Source: a virus (lineage: Duplodnaviria > Heunggongvirae > Uroviricota > Caudoviricetes). Taken from it: a stretch of DNA of 33,147 nucleotides. The stretch lies in the IMG/VR virus record IMGVR_UViG_2630968543_000006; one strand, 5' to 3'. The position numbers and the translations under genes were made by a program. Positions within the stretch are counted from its first letter, which is position 1; each line of letters begins with the position of its first letter. Positions 25,138 to 33,147 of this stretch are shown in pieces. The notes under the pieces were generated by a model. The model saw nothing but the letters and a program-made list of their open reading frames with translations, was not told the origin of the DNA and made no database searches.

Positions 25138-25431
25138 ATGAAAAAAATGTTGTTTTCTGCCGCTCTGGCAATGCTTATTACAGGATGTGCTCAACAGACG
25201 TTTACTGTTGGAAACAAACCGACAGCAGTAACACCAAAGGAAACCATCACCCATCATTTCTTCGTTTCGGGAATTGGACAGGAGAAAACTGTTGATGCAG
25301 CCAAAATTTGTGGCGGCGCAGAAAATGTTGTTAAAACAGAAACCCAGCAAACATTCGTAAATGGATTTCTCGGTTTTATTACTTTAGGCATTTATACTCC
25401 GCTGGAAGCGCGTGTGTATTGCTCACAATAA
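25138..25431 (+). CDS. bor: Bor lipoprotein (serum-resistance lipoprotein, Iss homologue)
   Basis: ATG at 25138 after AGGA; MKKMLFSAALAMLITGC (lipobox) AQQTFTV...ETITHHFFVSGIGQ...TPLEARVYCSQ, 97 aa, close to lambda Bor. Oriented opposite to the late genes, as in lambda. Confidence 0.93.
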   Translation: MKKMLFSAALAMLITGCAQQTFTVGNKPTAVTPKETITHHFFVSGIGQEKTVDAAKICGGAENVVKTETQQTFVNGFLGFITLGIYTPLEARVYCSQ

Positions 25432-27205: not shown

Positions 27206-28288
27206 ATGAAAAAATTAACAGTGGCAATTTCTGCTGTAGCTGCATCAGTACTGATGGCGATGTCTGCTCAGGCAGCTGAAATTTATAATAAAGACAGTAA
27301 CAAGCTGGATCTGTACGGGAAAGTTAATGCTAAGCACTACTTCTCCTCTAATGATGCAGATGATGGTGATACTACTTATGCCCGTCTTGGCTTCAAAGGT
27401 GAAACCCAAATCAACGATCAACTGACTGGTTTCGGTCAGTGGGAATATGAATTCAAAGGCAACCGCGCTGAATCTCAAGGTTCTTCCAAAGACAAAACCC
27501 GTCTTGCATTTGCAGGCCTGAAATTTGGTGATTACGGCTCAATCGATTACGGCCGTAACTACGGTGTAGCATACGACATCGGTGCGTGGACTGACGTTCT
27601 GCCAGAATTCGGTGGTGATACCTGGACCCAAACAGATGTGTTCATGACTGGTCGCACTACTGGTGTTGCAACTTATCGTAACAACGACTTCTTTGGTCTG
27701 GTCGATGGCCTGAACTTTGCTGCTCAGTATCAGGGTAAAAATGACCGCACTGACGTAACTGAAGCCAATGGTGATGGTTTCGGTTTCTCCACTACTTATG
27801 AGTATGAAGGATTCGGCGTGGGTGCAACCTATGCTAAATCAGATCGCACTGACGGTCAGGTCGCCTATGGTAAGAGCAAATTCAATGCCTCCGGCAAAAA
27901 TGCGGAAGTATGGGCTGCAGGCCTGAAATATGATGCGAACAATATCTATCTGGCTACCACATATTCTGAAACTCAGAATATGACCGTTTTTGGTAATAAC
28001 CATATTGCAAACAAAGCACAAAACTTTGAAGCAGTAGCACAATATCAGTTTGACTTCGGTCTGCGCCCATCTGTTGCTTACCTTCAGTCAAAAGGTAAAG
28101 ACCTTGGTGTTCATGGTGACCGAGACTTAGTCAAGTATGTCGATGTCGGTGCTACTTACTACTTTAATAAAAACATGTCCACTTTTGTTGATTACAAAAT
28201 CAACTTAATTGACGATAGTAAGTTTACCAAAACAGCTGATATTGATACCGACGACATCGTCGCTGTAGGTCTGGTTTACCAGTTCTAA
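27206..28288 (+). CDS. nmpC: General outer-membrane porin, NmpC/Lc type (OmpC/OmpF/PhoE family)
   Basis: ATG at 27206 gives signal peptide [23 protein letters not shown] then [24 protein letters not shown]... and C-terminal ...VAVGLVYQF (360 aa). Opposite orientation to the late genes, between Q and S, as in DLP12. Confidence 0.9.
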
Positions 28289-29733: not shown

Positions 29734-29896
29734 GATTCCTCCTTGCTGCCAGTCGCAACCATTTTTTATCAACCAGGCTAGCGGTATATCCGAGCAGTGT
29801 TGGTATTTCGGATGGCTTCAGCTCAGGTTTACGCTTACGACGATTTGGTACTTTGTAGATGTGTCCGTTCATGACACGAATAAGCGGTGTAGCCAT
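29726..29896 (-). CDS. ninE: NinE-like protein
   Basis: Hand translation gives the 56-aa [56 protein letters not shown]. Start overlaps the ybcN stop and stop overlaps the ybcO start. Below the track cutoff. Confidence 0.7.
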   Translation of the reverse strand: MATPLIRVMNGHIYKVPNRRKRKPELKPSEIPTLLGYTASLVDKKWLRLAARRNHG

Positions 29897-30351
29897 TACG
29901 CCTCCTGCTTGTCGCGCAGCAGCTGGAACTCGCAGCTCTGCGGAATAGTCAGGTGGCAGCCAATATTCATCGCCCAGGCTTCAACCTTACACAGGAAGAC
30001 ATACATCTCTCCGGTATCAAGATCGGAGGTATGGCGTAACGACTGGATAGTAGTGATTTCGCCGGTTACGACATCAACCAGGTCCTTGGTTTCATAACCG
30101 AGGTATGTGTGTTTGAGAGCATCTTTTACCCATGCTGCGGTAGCGAACGATTTCCCCCTGCTGATGAGGTATTCACTGATTTCGCTGTACCACATGTGGC
30201 TGAGTGCATTCTGGGAAAGACTGCGTCTCTCTCGCCACGGTTTAAGCACCATGCGAAAGCATTTGCCGTCTTCCAGATAAGGCTGGATCTGCTGACCGAT
30301 AGCGGTGAAGTTACCGCGATGCAATTTGATGCCATCTTGTGGGAGGTTCAC
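29896..30351 (-). CDS. ybcN: YbcN-like protein (DUF1367, nin-region protein)
   Basis: 151 aa, [61 protein letters not shown]...; matches DLP12 YbcN by recall. Confidence 0.85.
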
Positions 30352-30557
30352 GCTTCACCTCCACAGAGGTCAAACGCTAGATGCAAAGAATTGCAGGTGC
30401 ATTTCTGCATCTGTGAAAGGAGAAGATAGTTTGGATTGTATGTGCGCATAAACGTCCCCGTTTAGCGCAGAAGTCACCGGAGTTGTTCAGGCTCCGATTA
30501 CTTAATTATGGCAAGTTGATTATCGCAAATCAAAGGTTTTAATTGTGCTTTATTCTT

Positions 30558-30758
30558 TCAAGCGTTTCCTTCATACCAAAGCCTATAAAGTTTTTCTTCT
30601 TCGTTTGGGTTAATAGGCTCACCATGTTTTAATTTTTCAGTGTACAAAATTGTTGAACAAATCGCGGAAGTTAATCCAGTGATCGCCATCTGCTGCAGAT
30701 CGGATTTTTGTGTCCCCCCCAACAGACGATCTCCCATCCATGTAATAATTGTATCCAT
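30558..30758 (-). CDS. Hypothetical 66-aa protein
   Basis: ORF MDTIITWMGDRLLGGTQKSDLQQMAITGLTSAICSTILYTEKLKHGEPINPNEEEKLYRLWYEGNA on the same strand as the nin genes. No family recognised. Contains a C7 tract at 30714-30720. Confidence 0.4.
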   Translation of the reverse strand: MDTIITWMGDRLLGGTQKSDLQQMAITGLTSAICSTILYTEKLKHGEPINPNEEEKLYRLWYEGNA

Positions 30759-31351
30759 GCTTCAGCCCTTCTTAGTAAATAGTGTGTAGGGCGACTGAAG
30801 GACCGAGTTTATGCTTTTTCGCATTGCTTTCAGTTAGTAGACCGGTATCGCACCGGAAACAATCCTACGGCAAATTGGTTGTCTGACCTCTCGGTTTTTC
30901 GTGCATTAACCGATACCCACTACAGTCTCGGCGAAAGCTGCACACCCCCAAGGTGTACTGGTAGCACTCGGCACAGCCTAGCGCGCCACTTTCTTCTCAC
31001 TATCCAGTCTAATTTTATCCCCTAGTCAGACACTCAGATGTAGTGCTCCGCAGCGGCATGCGGGGGAATACAAAAACTCGGACAAAATTGGGCCCTCCTT
31101 TTTGAATCACTCGCGGGGATGTAGTTATTAATACATGGGAAAAGATCTGTTTTCAAATCCAACATTATATGGTTTCAATACCACGGGGTGGCTATGTGGC
31201 TATGTGTTTCTCATTATTATTTACAATCTACTGTAATCGCTCCGAACGCAAATGCGTCAATACTCGAATCAACTGATCATCCTGCCACGACTGAAATCTC
31301 AAATAGGCCGTTTCTCAAGTAAGAGATTTTGAATGCATTATTGGCTACTGA

Positions 31352-31378
31352 AATAAAAAACCCAGCGCCAACTGGGTT
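31352..31378 (-). terminator. Rho-independent terminator just after the 164-aa gene
   Basis: Stem aacccag (31359-31365) / ctgggtt (31372-31378), followed on the minus strand by TTTTTTATTT; 18 nt after the stop at 31396. Confidence 0.7.
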
Positions 31379-31395
31379 CATATGAAATTTTTTTG

Positions 31396-31890
31396 TCATT
31401 TCCAATTGCAAGACTGTGAAATTTTTTCCACAACCTTATCAATCTCAGACAAGTCAAACTCAACTACTTGCATAGTTGATCCATAAGGTTCAAACCCAAA
31501 AATAGCTTTTTTATGCTTAGCCAAGGTCTTTATAAATTGTATTGGTTGTGGAGCAAATGCAGAATCACCGCCTTCCCCACCTCCCCAAGCACTCTTGACC
31601 GGCTTTCCGCCATCTAACCGCACTGTAATTCTTGGGTTGTCCGAACCCATATAATCATTGAATGATAAATAGGCATCTGTTTTGTTATCACTACAACGCA
31701 ACACCAGTGAAGTTGCACGATCAGTACCTGCTTTGTTATATGAATCTGGTGATAAATTAAGAGCCACAAAGTCAGTCTGGTCAGTCATTTTATTTATCTC
31801 AGACTTTGTTATCCACGACCCTAACTTCTCTACACCAGCATTTGCAGTAAACGAGGCACTTATGACAAAGGCTATAATAAATTTTCTCAT
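31396..31890 (-). CDS. Secreted (periplasmic) protein of unknown function, likely an accessory (moron) gene
   Basis: 164 aa with signal peptide MRKFIIAFVISASFTANA. Has its own terminator and is separated from downstream genes by the ORF-poor stretch. No family recognised. Confidence 0.6.
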   Translation of the reverse strand: MRKFIIAFVISASFTANAGVEKLGSWITKSEINKMTDQTDFVALNLSPDSYNKAGTDRATSLVLRCSDNKTDAYLSFNDYMGSDNPRITVRLDGGKPVKSAWGGGEGGDSAFAPQPIQFIKTLAKHKKAIFGFEPYGSTMQVVEFDLSEIDKVVEKISQSCNWK

Positions 31891-32036
31891 AACCCTATCT
31901 CCTTGGATTTAAAGAACTAAATATTATCAAGTCTCTTGCCACTAGAAAACCCACTTTATTTCCAAACTCTGATGGCATTCCTGAAAATCCGCTTCATACT
32001 CACTTGCCCCGCCCTATCATCCTGAGTAGCTAACCG

Positions 32037-32210
32037 TTAAACAAACGTTCGCCAGACCTTACCATCAATGACCAGGATTCCTGCCCGCGCCATTTTTGCC
32101 GCAGCCTGATTTATGCTGGTTAATGTCACACCTGTTGTCGCAGCAACGTCCGGCGCACAGAAGCTCTTGTGCGTCTCCAGATAATGAATAATTGCCTCTT
32201 TGCCCGTCAT
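32037..32210 (-). CDS. Small winged-helix-like protein, 57 aa from ATG at 32210 (PapI/FaeA-like pattern); possibly the 3' remnant of a gene disrupted by the IS
   Basis: MTGKEAIIHYLETHKSFCAPDVAATTGVTLTSINQAAAKMARAGILVIDGKVWRTFV. The track ORF 32037..32402 runs upstream into the IS, which ends 8 bp from this ATG, and there is no convincing ribosome-binding site. Confidence 0.4.
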   Translation of the reverse strand: MTGKEAIIHYLETHKSFCAPDVAATTGVTLTSINQAAAKMARAGILVIDGKVWRTFV

Positions 32211-32217
32211 ACAGTTG

Positions 32218-33147
32218 TGAACCGCCCCGGGTTTCCTGGAGAGTATTTTATCTGTGAACTCAGGCTGCCAGATCATCGTTTCCGATGGAAGCATAATAAG
32301 CTTTTTCTGCTTCTGCCGGAGGAGTATGGCCCAGCCTTTCCAGCAATCGTCGATTGTTATACCAGTCCACCCACGTGAGTGTGGCCAGTTCCACTTCTGC
32401 ACGGTTTTTCCAGCTCTTACGGTGTATTACCTCCGCTTTGTAAAGACCATTGATGCTCTCCGCCATCGCGTTGTCATACGAGTCGCCTGTACTTCCTGTT
32501 GATGCCAGTAATCCGGCTTCCTTAAGCCGCTGTGTGTAGGCCAGCGATACATACTGAGAACCTTTATCACTGTGATGGACCGTGCCGGACGGTCGACGGG
32601 CCCATAACGCCTGCTCCAGTGCATCCAGCACGAATGTCGTCTCCATGGACGATGAGACCCGCCACCCCACAATGTATCCGGCAAACACATCAATGATGAA
32701 CGCCACATAGACGAAGCCCTGCCATGTGCTGACGTAAGTAAAATCAGCCACCCACAGCTGGTCAGGTCGTTCTGCCACGAACTGACGGTTTACGCGGTCG
32801 CCTGCGGCAACGGCTTTCCGGCTGATGGTCGTACGGACCTTTTTACCCCGGAGAACACCGGCAAGTCCCATAACCGCCATGAGACGTGCCACAGTGCATC
32901 TGGCCACTCTGATACCTTCCCGTAACAACTGACGCCAGACTTTACGCACACCGTATACCTTGTGATTTTCATCGTATACGCGCTGTATCTCTTTCTTCAG
33001 CCAGTCATCGCGCTGCGCACGGGCACTGCGTTTATCCGGATGATGTCGCTGTTGCTGACAGTGGTAATACGTTGACGGGGCAATATGCAGTTCGCTGCAT
33101 AGCGGTCCGACCCCGTACTGCTCACGCAGCTTATCCAGCAGTGGCAT
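32218..33147 (-). mobile_element. IS3-family insertion sequence (IS629/IS1203-like), terminal inverted-repeat end at 32218; extends beyond the window
   Basis: IS3-type end tgaaccgccccgggtttcctggagag beginning with TG at 32218, about 40 bp beyond the orfB stop. Element identity is from memory. Confidence 0.8.
32260..33147 (-). CDS. IS3-family transposase OrfB (DDE integrase catalytic domain); start is at the window edge and may lie upstream
   Basis: 295 aa. MPLLDKLREQYGVGPLCSELHIAPSTYYH...LWVADFTYVSTWQGFVYVAFIIDVFAGYIVGW...HHSDKGSQYVS...DNAMAESINGLYKAE carries the D, D...E hallmarks of IS3-family OrfB. Confidence 0.9.
   Translation of the reverse strand: MPLLDKLREQYGVGPLCSELHIAPSTYYHCQQQRHHPDKRSARAQRDDWLKKEIQRVYDENHKVYGVRKVWRQLLREGIRVARCTVARLMAVMGLAGVLRGKKVRTTISRKAVAAGDRVNRQFVAERPDQLWVADFTYVSTWQGFVYVAFIIDVFAGYIVGWRVSSSMETTFVLDALEQALWARRPSGTVHHSDKGSQYVSLAYTQRLKEAGLLASTGSTGDSYDNAMAESINGLYKAEVIHRKSWKNRAEVELATLTWVDWYNNRRLLERLGHTPPAEAEKAYYASIGNDDLAA

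Follow-up and report, generated by a model that had tools for sequence, protein, structure and literature searches.

Why does a lambdoid prophage of E. coli carry, at the 3' end of ren, a gene for a secreted protein that the databases name after type VI secretion systems (T6SS)? The gene lies at positions 31396-31890, minus strand, in a stretch of 33,147 nucleotides (nt) from the IMG/VR virus record IMGVR_UViG_2630968543_000006, the whole of which we refer to as the window. An earlier description made from the letters alone (the sequence-only reading) had seen here a stand-alone gene for a secreted protein of 164 amino acids (aa). We find that the gene is very probably a moron, that is, a cassette of ~630 bp and foreign base composition at the 3' end of ren that holds one gene with its own ribosome binding site and terminator. 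Its product is a distant phage-borne paralogue of the T6SS-associated protein TagO/VasI and not a T6SS component. As to its function, we tentatively suggest that the protein may protect the envelope of the lysogen in the manner of a superinfection-exclusion factor. The features on which the argument draws are these:

31318-31945 (approximate, ~630 bp), minus strand: inserted cassette of low G+C content, made up of a promoter-like region, the gene and a terminator.
31396-31890, minus strand: open reading frame (ORF) of 164 aa with an ATG start, from the ORF call.
31904-31899, minus strand: Shine-Dalgarno sequence AAGGAG, 8 nt 5' of the ATG, read from the sequence.
31837-31890, minus strand: predicted signal peptide MRKFIIAFVISASFTANA, residues 1-18, with cleavage before G19 and no lipobox.
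31348-31379, minus strand: intrinsic terminator of the cassette, from a consensus scan; a T-run follows a hairpin with a 9-bp stem and a loop of 4 nt.
31921-31929, minus strand: extended -10-like element TGATAATAT, a candidate promoter, with the hexamer TAATAT at 31926-31921, 30 nt before the ATG.
31944-31949, minus strand: weak -35-like hexamer TTTTCT, 17 nt 5' of the -10 hexamer, matching TTGACA at three of six positions.
31942-32210, minus strand: ren pseudogene (frameshift and internal stop), as annotated by RefSeq on identical DNA, with the ORF ending at 32037.

The 164-aa ORF is a real gene, as the sequence-only reading had taken it to be. Compared with relatives at 74-81% identity, its ratio of non-synonymous to synonymous substitution rates (dN/dS) is 0.09-0.12 with dS >1, and a dN/dS of ~0.1 indicates that it is under purifying selection. 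The exact protein is recorded on 684 contigs, and the gene is found in 83 of 5426 complete E. coli genomes (~1.5%), with at least 80% of its length present in 81. A chance ORF is thus ruled out by the low dN/dS together with hundreds of conserved copies. The stretch from the Shine-Dalgarno sequence to the start codon, ending in GATAGGG(A/T)TATG, is also present in most relatives. Strains that carry it are of every kind, from commensals to environmental and animal isolates. The isolated phages IdasGreatGrand and Turner both match the region at the DNA level, the gene itself being located in IdasGreatGrand, and the carrier phages include one that was isolated from swamp mud on E. coli. Among the 83 carrier records is NZ_CP174001.1, a 43,337-bp 'plasmid' of E. 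coli SZQ1 with the gene at 35265-35759; a record of this size suggests that the phage genome is present there as a circularised or episomal copy. We also noted that a 90%-identity protein cluster of 352 members mixes the 164-aa protein with 233-aa 'replication protein P' sequences, one of which represents the cluster; an artefact of clustering seems likely, perhaps because ORFs were fused or mis-called across P, ren and the cassette, and it could explain odd names in searches.

In connection with its origin, the gene stands out from the prophage in which it lies. The window belongs to a DLP12-like lambdoid prophage of E. coli, with identical DNA in two annotated RefSeq genomes. G+C content is 39.2% in the gene and 38.1% over 31318-31945, compared with 51.4% on the ybcN side, 48.7% in ren and 52.1% in the whole window, so that the base composition of the cassette differs from that of the surrounding phage genes, as is characteristic of morons. 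The boundaries can be placed as well. Homology to the ren DNA of phage lambda ends at 31966, and the low-G+C cassette stands in place of the 3' end of ren. IdasGreatGrand, an isolated temperate phage, is homologous to the window at 95.8% over 31318-32212 and carries 1.84 kb of other DNA exactly after 31317, ~30 nt past the end of the T-run of the terminator. With phage lambda the match is confined to the ren/P DNA, and with phage 82 and many other lambdoid phages to the ybcN/ninE DNA; relative to these otherwise homologous phages the cassette is an addition, again as in morons, and a transcription terminator of its own is a third such feature. It is from the terminator, the low G+C content, the boundaries and the absence from related phages that we conclude, with high but not complete confidence, that the gene is a moron in the sense of Juhala and Hendrix (PMC3594210). 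The pseudogene state of ren is also found in genomes without the insertion element IS3.

The claim that the gene sits apart from the flanking operon holds with a reservation: it is an inserted unit, but it is not divergent, being on the minus strand like the early-right and nin genes P, ren, ybcN, ninE, rusA and quuD. The layout of an independently expressed accessory gene on a prophage, which had also been proposed, is supported by the low-G+C block shared with IdasGreatGrand, by terminators behind the gene in most relatives and by a conserved promoter-like motif in front of it.

The terminator had been put at 31352-31378, which is essentially correct. On the minus strand the hairpin GAACCCAGTTGGCGCTGGGTTT occupies 31379-31358 and is followed by TTTATTT, so that the whole element runs from 31379 to 31348, with a folding energy of -12.2 kcal/mol for the hairpin. 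A hairpin with a T-run is found at most 110 nt 3' of the gene in 42 of 47 non-redundant relatives, compared with 4.3% of random windows from the same contigs, and these hairpins start 15-51 nt after the stop codon, in most cases 15-19 nt. The stems differ between clades (AACCCAGTT.., AAACCCAGC.., AACCCGC.., AACCCTCC.., AACCTCGC..), and it is therefore the structure that is maintained. We considered that the element might be an early terminator of the phage itself, of the tR2 type, and rejected this, since the terminator travels with the gene: the rearrangement in IdasGreatGrand starts ~30 nt past the T-run, and relatives in a tail-gene position keep an equivalent hairpin. As a separate observation, in a clade at 57% identity (L085 6516-6835; also L083-L089 and L016) the VasI-like gene has no terminator of its own and is directly followed, before the tape-measure gene, by another small ORF whose product has a hydrophobic N-terminus (MKKYIFLIFILVLAAGG...); this may be a two-gene cargo or a partner protein.

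Upstream of the gene lies a candidate promoter, probably the cassette's own, weak and of the extended -10 type, with a predicted transcription start near 31914-31918. The -35-like hexamer TTTTCT lies in the last bases of the annotated ren pseudogene, at the cassette junction. Among the relatives a TGnTAGGAT/TGATAATAT element occurs 39-46 nt before the ATG, in many of them right after an upstream terminator; often TTGTCG or TTGCGC lies 16 nt upstream of the element, with another terminator directly before that. The pattern TGnTAnnnT at the same distance from the ATG is present in all four E. coli-type sequences and in 15 of 26 other non-redundant relatives (background 1.6%), and TAGGAT is present between -50 and -28 in 22 of 26 non-redundant upstream regions (background 0.15%), counts that come from sequences of shared ancestry and show constraint rather than independent events. 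In several relatives (L082, L007, L088, L078, L003 and L093) the conserved TAGGAT is one half of an inverted repeat, which reads TAGGAT-tt-ATCCTA in L007 and L082, where it lies ~40-46 nt upstream, and TAGGATTTGTCCTA in L088; in the Klebsiella type TAGGAT and ATCCTA are ~25 nt apart. Such a repeat could be an operator overlapping the -10 region, in which case expression would be regulated rather than constitutive. The window copy, TGATAATAT, has no inverted repeat.

Where does the product act? The signal peptide of the sequence-only reading is borne out by a basic n-region (MRK), an 11-residue hydrophobic core (FIIAFVISASF) and an A-x-A cleavage site (TANA, followed by GVEK), a call that we made from the sequence and the alignment and not with a dedicated predictor. 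Across 24 aligned homologues the segment is variable in sequence and constant in character, and strong conservation begins just after it; in the structural model described below, residues 1-4 and 8-17 have a predicted local distance difference test score (pLDDT) below 50. No Cys is found in the N-terminal 60 residues, so there is no lipobox, and a lipoprotein is ruled out. The protein would thus be exported by Sec and cleaved after Ala18 to give a mature form of ~146 aa, which, given the lack of a lipobox and of any further hydrophobic segment, we take to be soluble in the periplasm.

To which family does the protein belong? The sequence-only reading could not assign one; an assignment is possible. 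The protein matches PHROG 1848 over its full length (E 1e-70), a group annotated as of unknown function, and it matches the Pfam family PF11319 (VasI, formerly DUF3121) marginally, with 27.5 bits against a gathering threshold of 26.5 and only over profile positions 78-184 of 184. PF11319 is nevertheless the family matched by 48 of 49 aligned relatives (E at most 0.1, best 5.7e-17), and no other family is matched consistently. A hidden Markov model built from the close relatives aligns over the whole mature domain with 3830 clusters (50% identity level) at E <=1e-3, most of which carry an N-terminal extension of ~50 aa or more; a profile search of genome contigs with the close-relative alignment gave three loci only. 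The sequence-only reading had named confident homology to a characterised family of known phage function as grounds for refutation; the family that we found has no characterised phage function, and these grounds do not apply. In a literature search, no paper dealt with DUF3121, PF11319, PHROG 1848 or the accession in a phage context.

In RefSeq the identical protein, WP_001224617.1, is called 'T6SS-associated protein TagO', and this name does not fit. On TIGR03360, the equivalog model for TagO/VasI, it scores 14.9 bits (E 0.018) against a cut-off of 124.2; the phage homologues reach 47.5-75.9 bits, and ECs_0222, the TagO of E. coli O157 Sakai that served as a positive control, reaches 257.4. 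ECs_0222 lies between clpV/tssH and a tssA pseudogene in the aspV-linked T6SS cluster of Sakai, and in alignment with the window protein it shows 18% identity over 112 residues (E 0.024). There is common ground in the hallmark of the family: in the alignment of 49 sequences C66 and W163 are invariant and C161 is at least 90% conserved, and the Cys after the central strand (LRC or FSC) together with the C-terminal C-x-W aligns with LMFSC...DACHW of ECs_0222. The N-terminal region of the long members, ~77 profile positions that include the motif C...RLxC[YF]D, is absent from the window protein, and no T6SS gene is near the target gene, either in the window or in the two annotated genomes that match it. 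In equivalog score, architecture and genomic context alike, then, the protein departs from a genuine T6SS TagO. Judged by its sequence, it is the bare core domain of the PF11319/VasI superfamily and not a TagO orthologue; the RefSeq name is a domain label or over-call, and probably not the protein's job.

A structural model from AlphaFold2, built on the 49-sequence alignment (mean pLDDT 90.9, predicted template modelling score 0.84), shows some ten strands arranged as a beta-sandwich, together with helices at 116-123 and 150-160; the mature protein begins directly with the sandwich. NKMTDxTD and GFEPYGSTM are its invariant loops. The two conserved Cys probably form one disulfide bond, C66-C161. 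The fold is IalB-like, with significant structural superposition on PDB entry 3DTD, and the MotY-N-like fold is also among the structural matches (PDB 2ZF8 and 8Z5N); a profile search against PDB chain sequences, run to an E value of 10, gave no match. Predicted viral structures show the fold again, in uncharacterised proteins from phages that include RB16 and KP15, both T4-type lytic phages, and Vibrio phage VH7D (E 1e-7 to 3e-4, template modelling scores of ~0.6-0.68). The fold matches listed include no structure of a lysozyme inhibitor and none with the label of a T6SS immunity protein, so neither fold was retained as a candidate; likewise, neither sequence nor fold similarity to the lysozyme-inhibitor families Ivy, PliC/MliC, PliG and PliI was found. 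A glycine-rich, acidic loop at residues 103-112 (GGGEGGDSAF, ~31557-31584) resembles a single calcium-binding motif of the RTX type, GGxGxD. It is conserved in the close clade only, and we therefore set aside GGEGGD (residues 104-109) as an RTX-like calcium site.

The genomic positions of the relatives bear on what such a protein may do. Relatives were found on 110 IMG/VR viral contigs, 80 of which we examined. Every one of the 41 copies with at least 95% identity is in the ren-ybcN slot; among the 39 relatives with 55-81% identity, 36 have an ORF of 726-1221 aa downstream, with a gap of at most 101 nt in 29. When nine of these large ORFs were sampled from different clades, seven matched TMP_3 above the Pfam cut-off, one matched TMP_2 weakly and one had no match. 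In Klebsiella, in Pantoea and in a third prophage type the gene order is tail tube, tail-assembly chaperone, VasI-like gene, tape measure, and the cargo genes KilA-N, Rha and Arc/Ant sometimes stand alongside the VasI-like gene in this tail slot. Pasteurella phage Pmp14 also has its homologue between tail chaperone and tape measure. This is the slot of gene 15 of phage HK97, the first moron to be named, whose product is a superinfection-exclusion protein expressed from the prophage (PMC3594210). Elsewhere, the homologue of Brucella phage BiPBO1 lies immediately 3' of the repressor gene and is co-oriented with it; in P2-like phages it lies in the cargo region adjoining int/att, and in those of E. 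coli it stands beside a hok/mok-like gene, paired with a zinc-ribbon protein.

Seven distant PF11319 members, sampled by genomic context, gave a similar picture. Two (P0048 and P0063) lie among prophage tail genes, P0063 also in the chaperone/tape-measure slot; P0061, P0069 and P0079 are beside integrases; P0053 is near a gene with a SIR2 domain and a toxin-antitoxin-like pair; and P0074, on short contigs, is beside a zinc-ribbon protein. T6SS genes adjoined none of these seven, as judged from Pfam-annotated neighbours, nor any of the close relatives sampled. We also noted a recurring module of two genes, one for a ~110-aa zinc-ribbon protein and, immediately after it, one for a longer VasI-domain protein (217-297 aa), found in P2-like E. 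coli phages, beside the hok/mok-like gene and int, and on unrelated metagenomic contigs:

L102 4450-5680, zinc-ribbon/VasI module.
L106 3202-4432, zinc-ribbon/VasI module.
L108 875-1888, zinc-ribbon/VasI module.
L109 528-1541, zinc-ribbon/VasI module.

A plausible, if tentative, explanation for these positions would be if the protein were made constitutively from the repressed prophage and protected the periplasm of the lysogen against machines that penetrate the envelope. Such protection would most probably take the form of superinfection exclusion while phage DNA is passing the periplasm, the protein interfering with the tail tip or tape-measure protein of the incoming phage; protection against T6SS attack would also be possible. 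In lytic growth, as we would expect from lambda biology, anti-terminated early transcripts (late ones in the relatives) would read through the gene. We favour a protective role because the relatives are found near-obligately in the slot of HK97 gp15 beside the tape-measure gene, because the BiPBO1 copy lies 3' of the repressor gene, because the copies in P2-like phages occupy att-adjoining cargo sites, because the fold recurs in proteins of phages such as RB16 and KP15, and because tape-measure and tail-tip proteins act in the periplasm at DNA entry.

Several points weigh against a protective role expressed from the prophage. PADLOC returned no defence-model match for the 164-aa protein or for the neighbouring 66-aa ORF. 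The E. coli copy is in the ren-ybcN slot and not in the tape-measure slot, which makes the slot argument indirect, and the tape-measure slot may simply tolerate insertions. A strict sigma-70 scan found no promoter upstream of the gene, and the -35 hexamer of the candidate promoter is weak. Superinfection-exclusion proteins already described, among them HK97 gp15, SieA and Cor, belong to the membrane proteins or the lipoproteins rather than to soluble beta-sandwiches of the periplasm (PMC3594210), and the killing phenotype of VCA0118 of V. cholerae, the only phenotype known for the family, is offensive and not defensive (PMC3166118).

Of the other explanations, the one that survives best, although we consider it unlikely, is that the protein is a factor of lysogenic conversion directed at eukaryotic hosts or the environment, acting in adhesion, invasion, resistance to serum or grazing, or robustness of the envelope, like Bor/Iss or Lom from prophages of this kind. 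Its fold is that of IalB, the invasion-associated protein of Bartonella (10.64898/2026.01.22.700529), and V. cholerae requires VCA0118 to be virulent towards amoebae (PMC3166118); iss/bor and a gene for an OmpC-like porin are on the prophage as well, and PF11319 is among the Pfam markers of severe salmonellosis, though together with other T6SS domains (PMC12440251). The IalB likeness exists at the level of the fold only, however, and IalB is itself a protein whose molecular function is not established (PMC7327166; 10.64898/2026.01.22.700529). A soluble periplasmic protein would not be exposed at the surface, and the broad range of carrier strains described above also speaks against this reading. 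The occurrence of the same fold in proteins of phages such as RB16 and KP15 argues for a phage-centred role rather than one in virulence, as these T4-type lytic phages have no use for host-virulence factors.

The orientation of the gene invites a different thought, namely that the protein helps the lytic cycle, in lysis, in blocking re-adsorption or abortive injection, or in transit through peptidoglycan, and owes most of its expression to anti-terminated transcripts that read through from the early or late operon. In the window the gene is oriented like the early-right operon, and in the relatives like the tail operon, and its promoter is weak and putative; the similar fold in proteins of lytic phages such as RB16 and KP15 and the MotY-N-like fold, which suggests docking onto periplasmic or cell-wall-associated structures, would also suit such a helper. 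We nonetheless find this doubtful: closely related phages manage without the gene, terminators bracket it in many relatives, the promoter-like element is conserved, and the BiPBO1 copy, co-oriented with the repressor, points to a lysogeny operon. In the window, moreover, IS3 separates the gene from P and the DNA upstream, and the ORF is still intact.

It is improbable, too, that the prophage supplies a T6SS-associated TagO/VasI protein that boosts or modulates a host T6SS from the periplasm. The VasI match just above the cut-off, the presence of PF11319 in nearly all relatives and the alignment of the Cys pair and C-terminal CxW with a genuine E. coli TagO lend this some appeal. E. coli strains can carry a T6SS-2 cluster in which tagO adjoins tssH (PMC10562709), and VCA0118 contributes to the killing of amoebae and E. 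coli with Hcp secretion unaffected, so that a helper free in the periplasm, enhancing killing and dispensable for secretion, is conceivable (PMC3166118). The equivalog score far below the cut-off, the low identity, the missing N-terminal region and the lack of T6SS genes beside the window copy or the sampled relatives all speak against it, as does the isolation of one carrier phage from swamp mud on E. coli. Least of all do we expect a periplasmic inhibitor of lysozyme, or an immunity-like protein against a T6SS effector or a tail lysin of phages that hydrolyses peptidoglycan: a periplasmic protein that is small, contains a disulfide and travels on a mobile element would fit Ivy/Pli-type inhibitors or orphan T6SS immunity proteins, and the place next to tape-measure genes, whose products often carry lysin domains, is suggestive, but no Pfam or NCBIfam match to such families was found and, as noted, lysozyme-inhibitor folds were not among the fold matches listed. 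An enzyme inhibitor was what the sequence-only reading had offered as an example of lysogenic conversion.

An envelope-protective role in the lysogen thus remains our preferred proposal, and it lends itself to a bolder and distinctly speculative extension, to which we give little weight: that the PF11319/VasI beta-sandwich is a general periplasmic guard against tail-like puncturing machines. The bare domain in temperate phages, encoded as a rule beside the tape-measure gene, would then stop the tail tip or tape measure of a superinfecting phage, perhaps also T6SS spikes, and the longer TagO/VasI of T6SS clusters would cope with fire from kin cells or guide the cell's own tube through the periplasm.

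The wider neighbourhood is that of a lambdoid prophage. The annotated stretch includes genes for the head and for packaging, iss/bor, rzpD-rrrD-essD, a gene on the opposite strand for an OmpC-like porin, quuD, ylcG, rusA, ybcO, ninE and ybcN; after ybcN come two small ORFs, the target gene, the frameshifted ren pseudogene and then IS3, between ren and P. The porin gene, OmpC/NmpC-like, lies at 27206-28288 (plus strand) between quuD and the lysis genes, and iss/bor, for a serum-survival lipoprotein, at 25138-25431 (plus strand) after rzpD, both of them further cargo genes of the prophage; in the matching genomes a gene for a SEN1984/BamE-like lipoprotein adjoins the repressor, outside the window.

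The IS3-family element, with a programmed-frameshift transposase, occupies 32218-33147 on the minus strand and runs off the end of the window. It is inserted between the replication gene P and ren, ends 7 nt before the ren ATG at 32210 and points towards ren and the target gene; that outward or read-through transcription from it affects the expression of either is speculation. The P gene is 678 nt long in the matching genome, 24 nt shorter than the 702 nt in a relative without the element. On the other side, from the cassette terminator to a 66-aa ORF at 30558-30758, ~600 nt (30759-31357) hold no ORF of more than 48 aa, and Rfam gave no match anywhere in 29800-32400. This stretch is 94% conserved in IdasGreatGrand, where the further 1.84 kb, at the position equal to 31317, are small genes; it is a variable cargo region.

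What is added to existing knowledge can be stated briefly. The gene was already in the databases, as PHROG 1848 and under its RefSeq name, and morons are a known kind of gene. New are three things: the TagO name is shown to over-call a domain, the short VasI-core proteins of temperate phages are defined as a clade, and that clade is strikingly linked to the tape-measure slot. The name matters in practice: it is attached to the exact sequence, which is recorded on 684 contigs, as well as to related genes from prophages of Klebsiella, Enterobacter, Pantoea and Citrobacter and from a Brucella phage, and could make pipelines count phantom T6SS genes. Biologically, a compact phage-borne version of VasI now appears in the classic cargo slots of lysogeny: that of HK97 gp15, next to the repressor, and next to att/int. 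If an exclusion or anti-T6SS role proved true, the protein would represent a new, soluble periplasmic class of such factors and would hint at the role of TagO, whose function a 2026 review lists as 'Unknown' (PMC13584744). If a general guard against puncturing machines proved true, it would be the first molecular function for an orphan T6SS accessory family and for the IalB fold. If no protective effect exists, the gene is an ordinary moron.

How does the protein compare with systems already described? Its nearest named counterparts, TagO/VasI (VCA0118 and ECs_0222), are likewise exported and share a C-terminal core domain of ~110-145 residues, the Cys pair and the terminal C-x-W. They differ in length (227-247 aa, compared with 164 aa here), in the N-terminal extension of ~50-80 aa with C...RLxC[YF]D, which stands between their signal or anchor and the core domain and which only they possess, and in location, being encoded between tssH/vasH and tssA in a T6SS cluster, in contrast to the prophage cargo slots of the phage proteins. 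With IalB of Bartonella henselae (PDB 3DTD) the fold is shared at 9-12% identity, with no detectable relationship at the sequence level; IalB is chromosomal in alpha-proteobacteria and has been reported at the inner membrane (10.64898/2026.01.22.700529; PMC7327166). The N-terminal domain of MotY, from the T-ring of the Vibrio polar flagellum (2ZF8 and 8Z5N), is more remote: the target protein lacks both sequence similarity to it and an OmpA-like peptidoglycan-binding domain, and there is no flagellar link in the gene neighbourhoods examined for the family.

In gene architecture the closest parallels are other morons. Like the gene for HK97 gp15, the target gene has its own terminator, a probable promoter, deviant G+C content and a patchy presence, being absent from related phages, and in both cases phages appear to have co-opted a bacterial family of envelope proteins, YebO in the case of gp15. 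Compared by description only, gp15 is a small inner-membrane protein and the product here a predicted soluble periplasmic beta-sandwich, and the E. coli copy is in the ren-ybcN slot. The lambdoid morons Bor/Iss, the OmpC/NmpC-like porin and the emrE-ybcL genes of DLP12 belong to other protein families, and Bor and the porin have assigned phenotypes. Their products are located in the envelope and expressed from prophages, as would also be the case for the present gene, and the ren-nin junction is known as a site of cargo, the DLP12 of K-12 carrying emrE, ybcK, ybcL and ybcM there.

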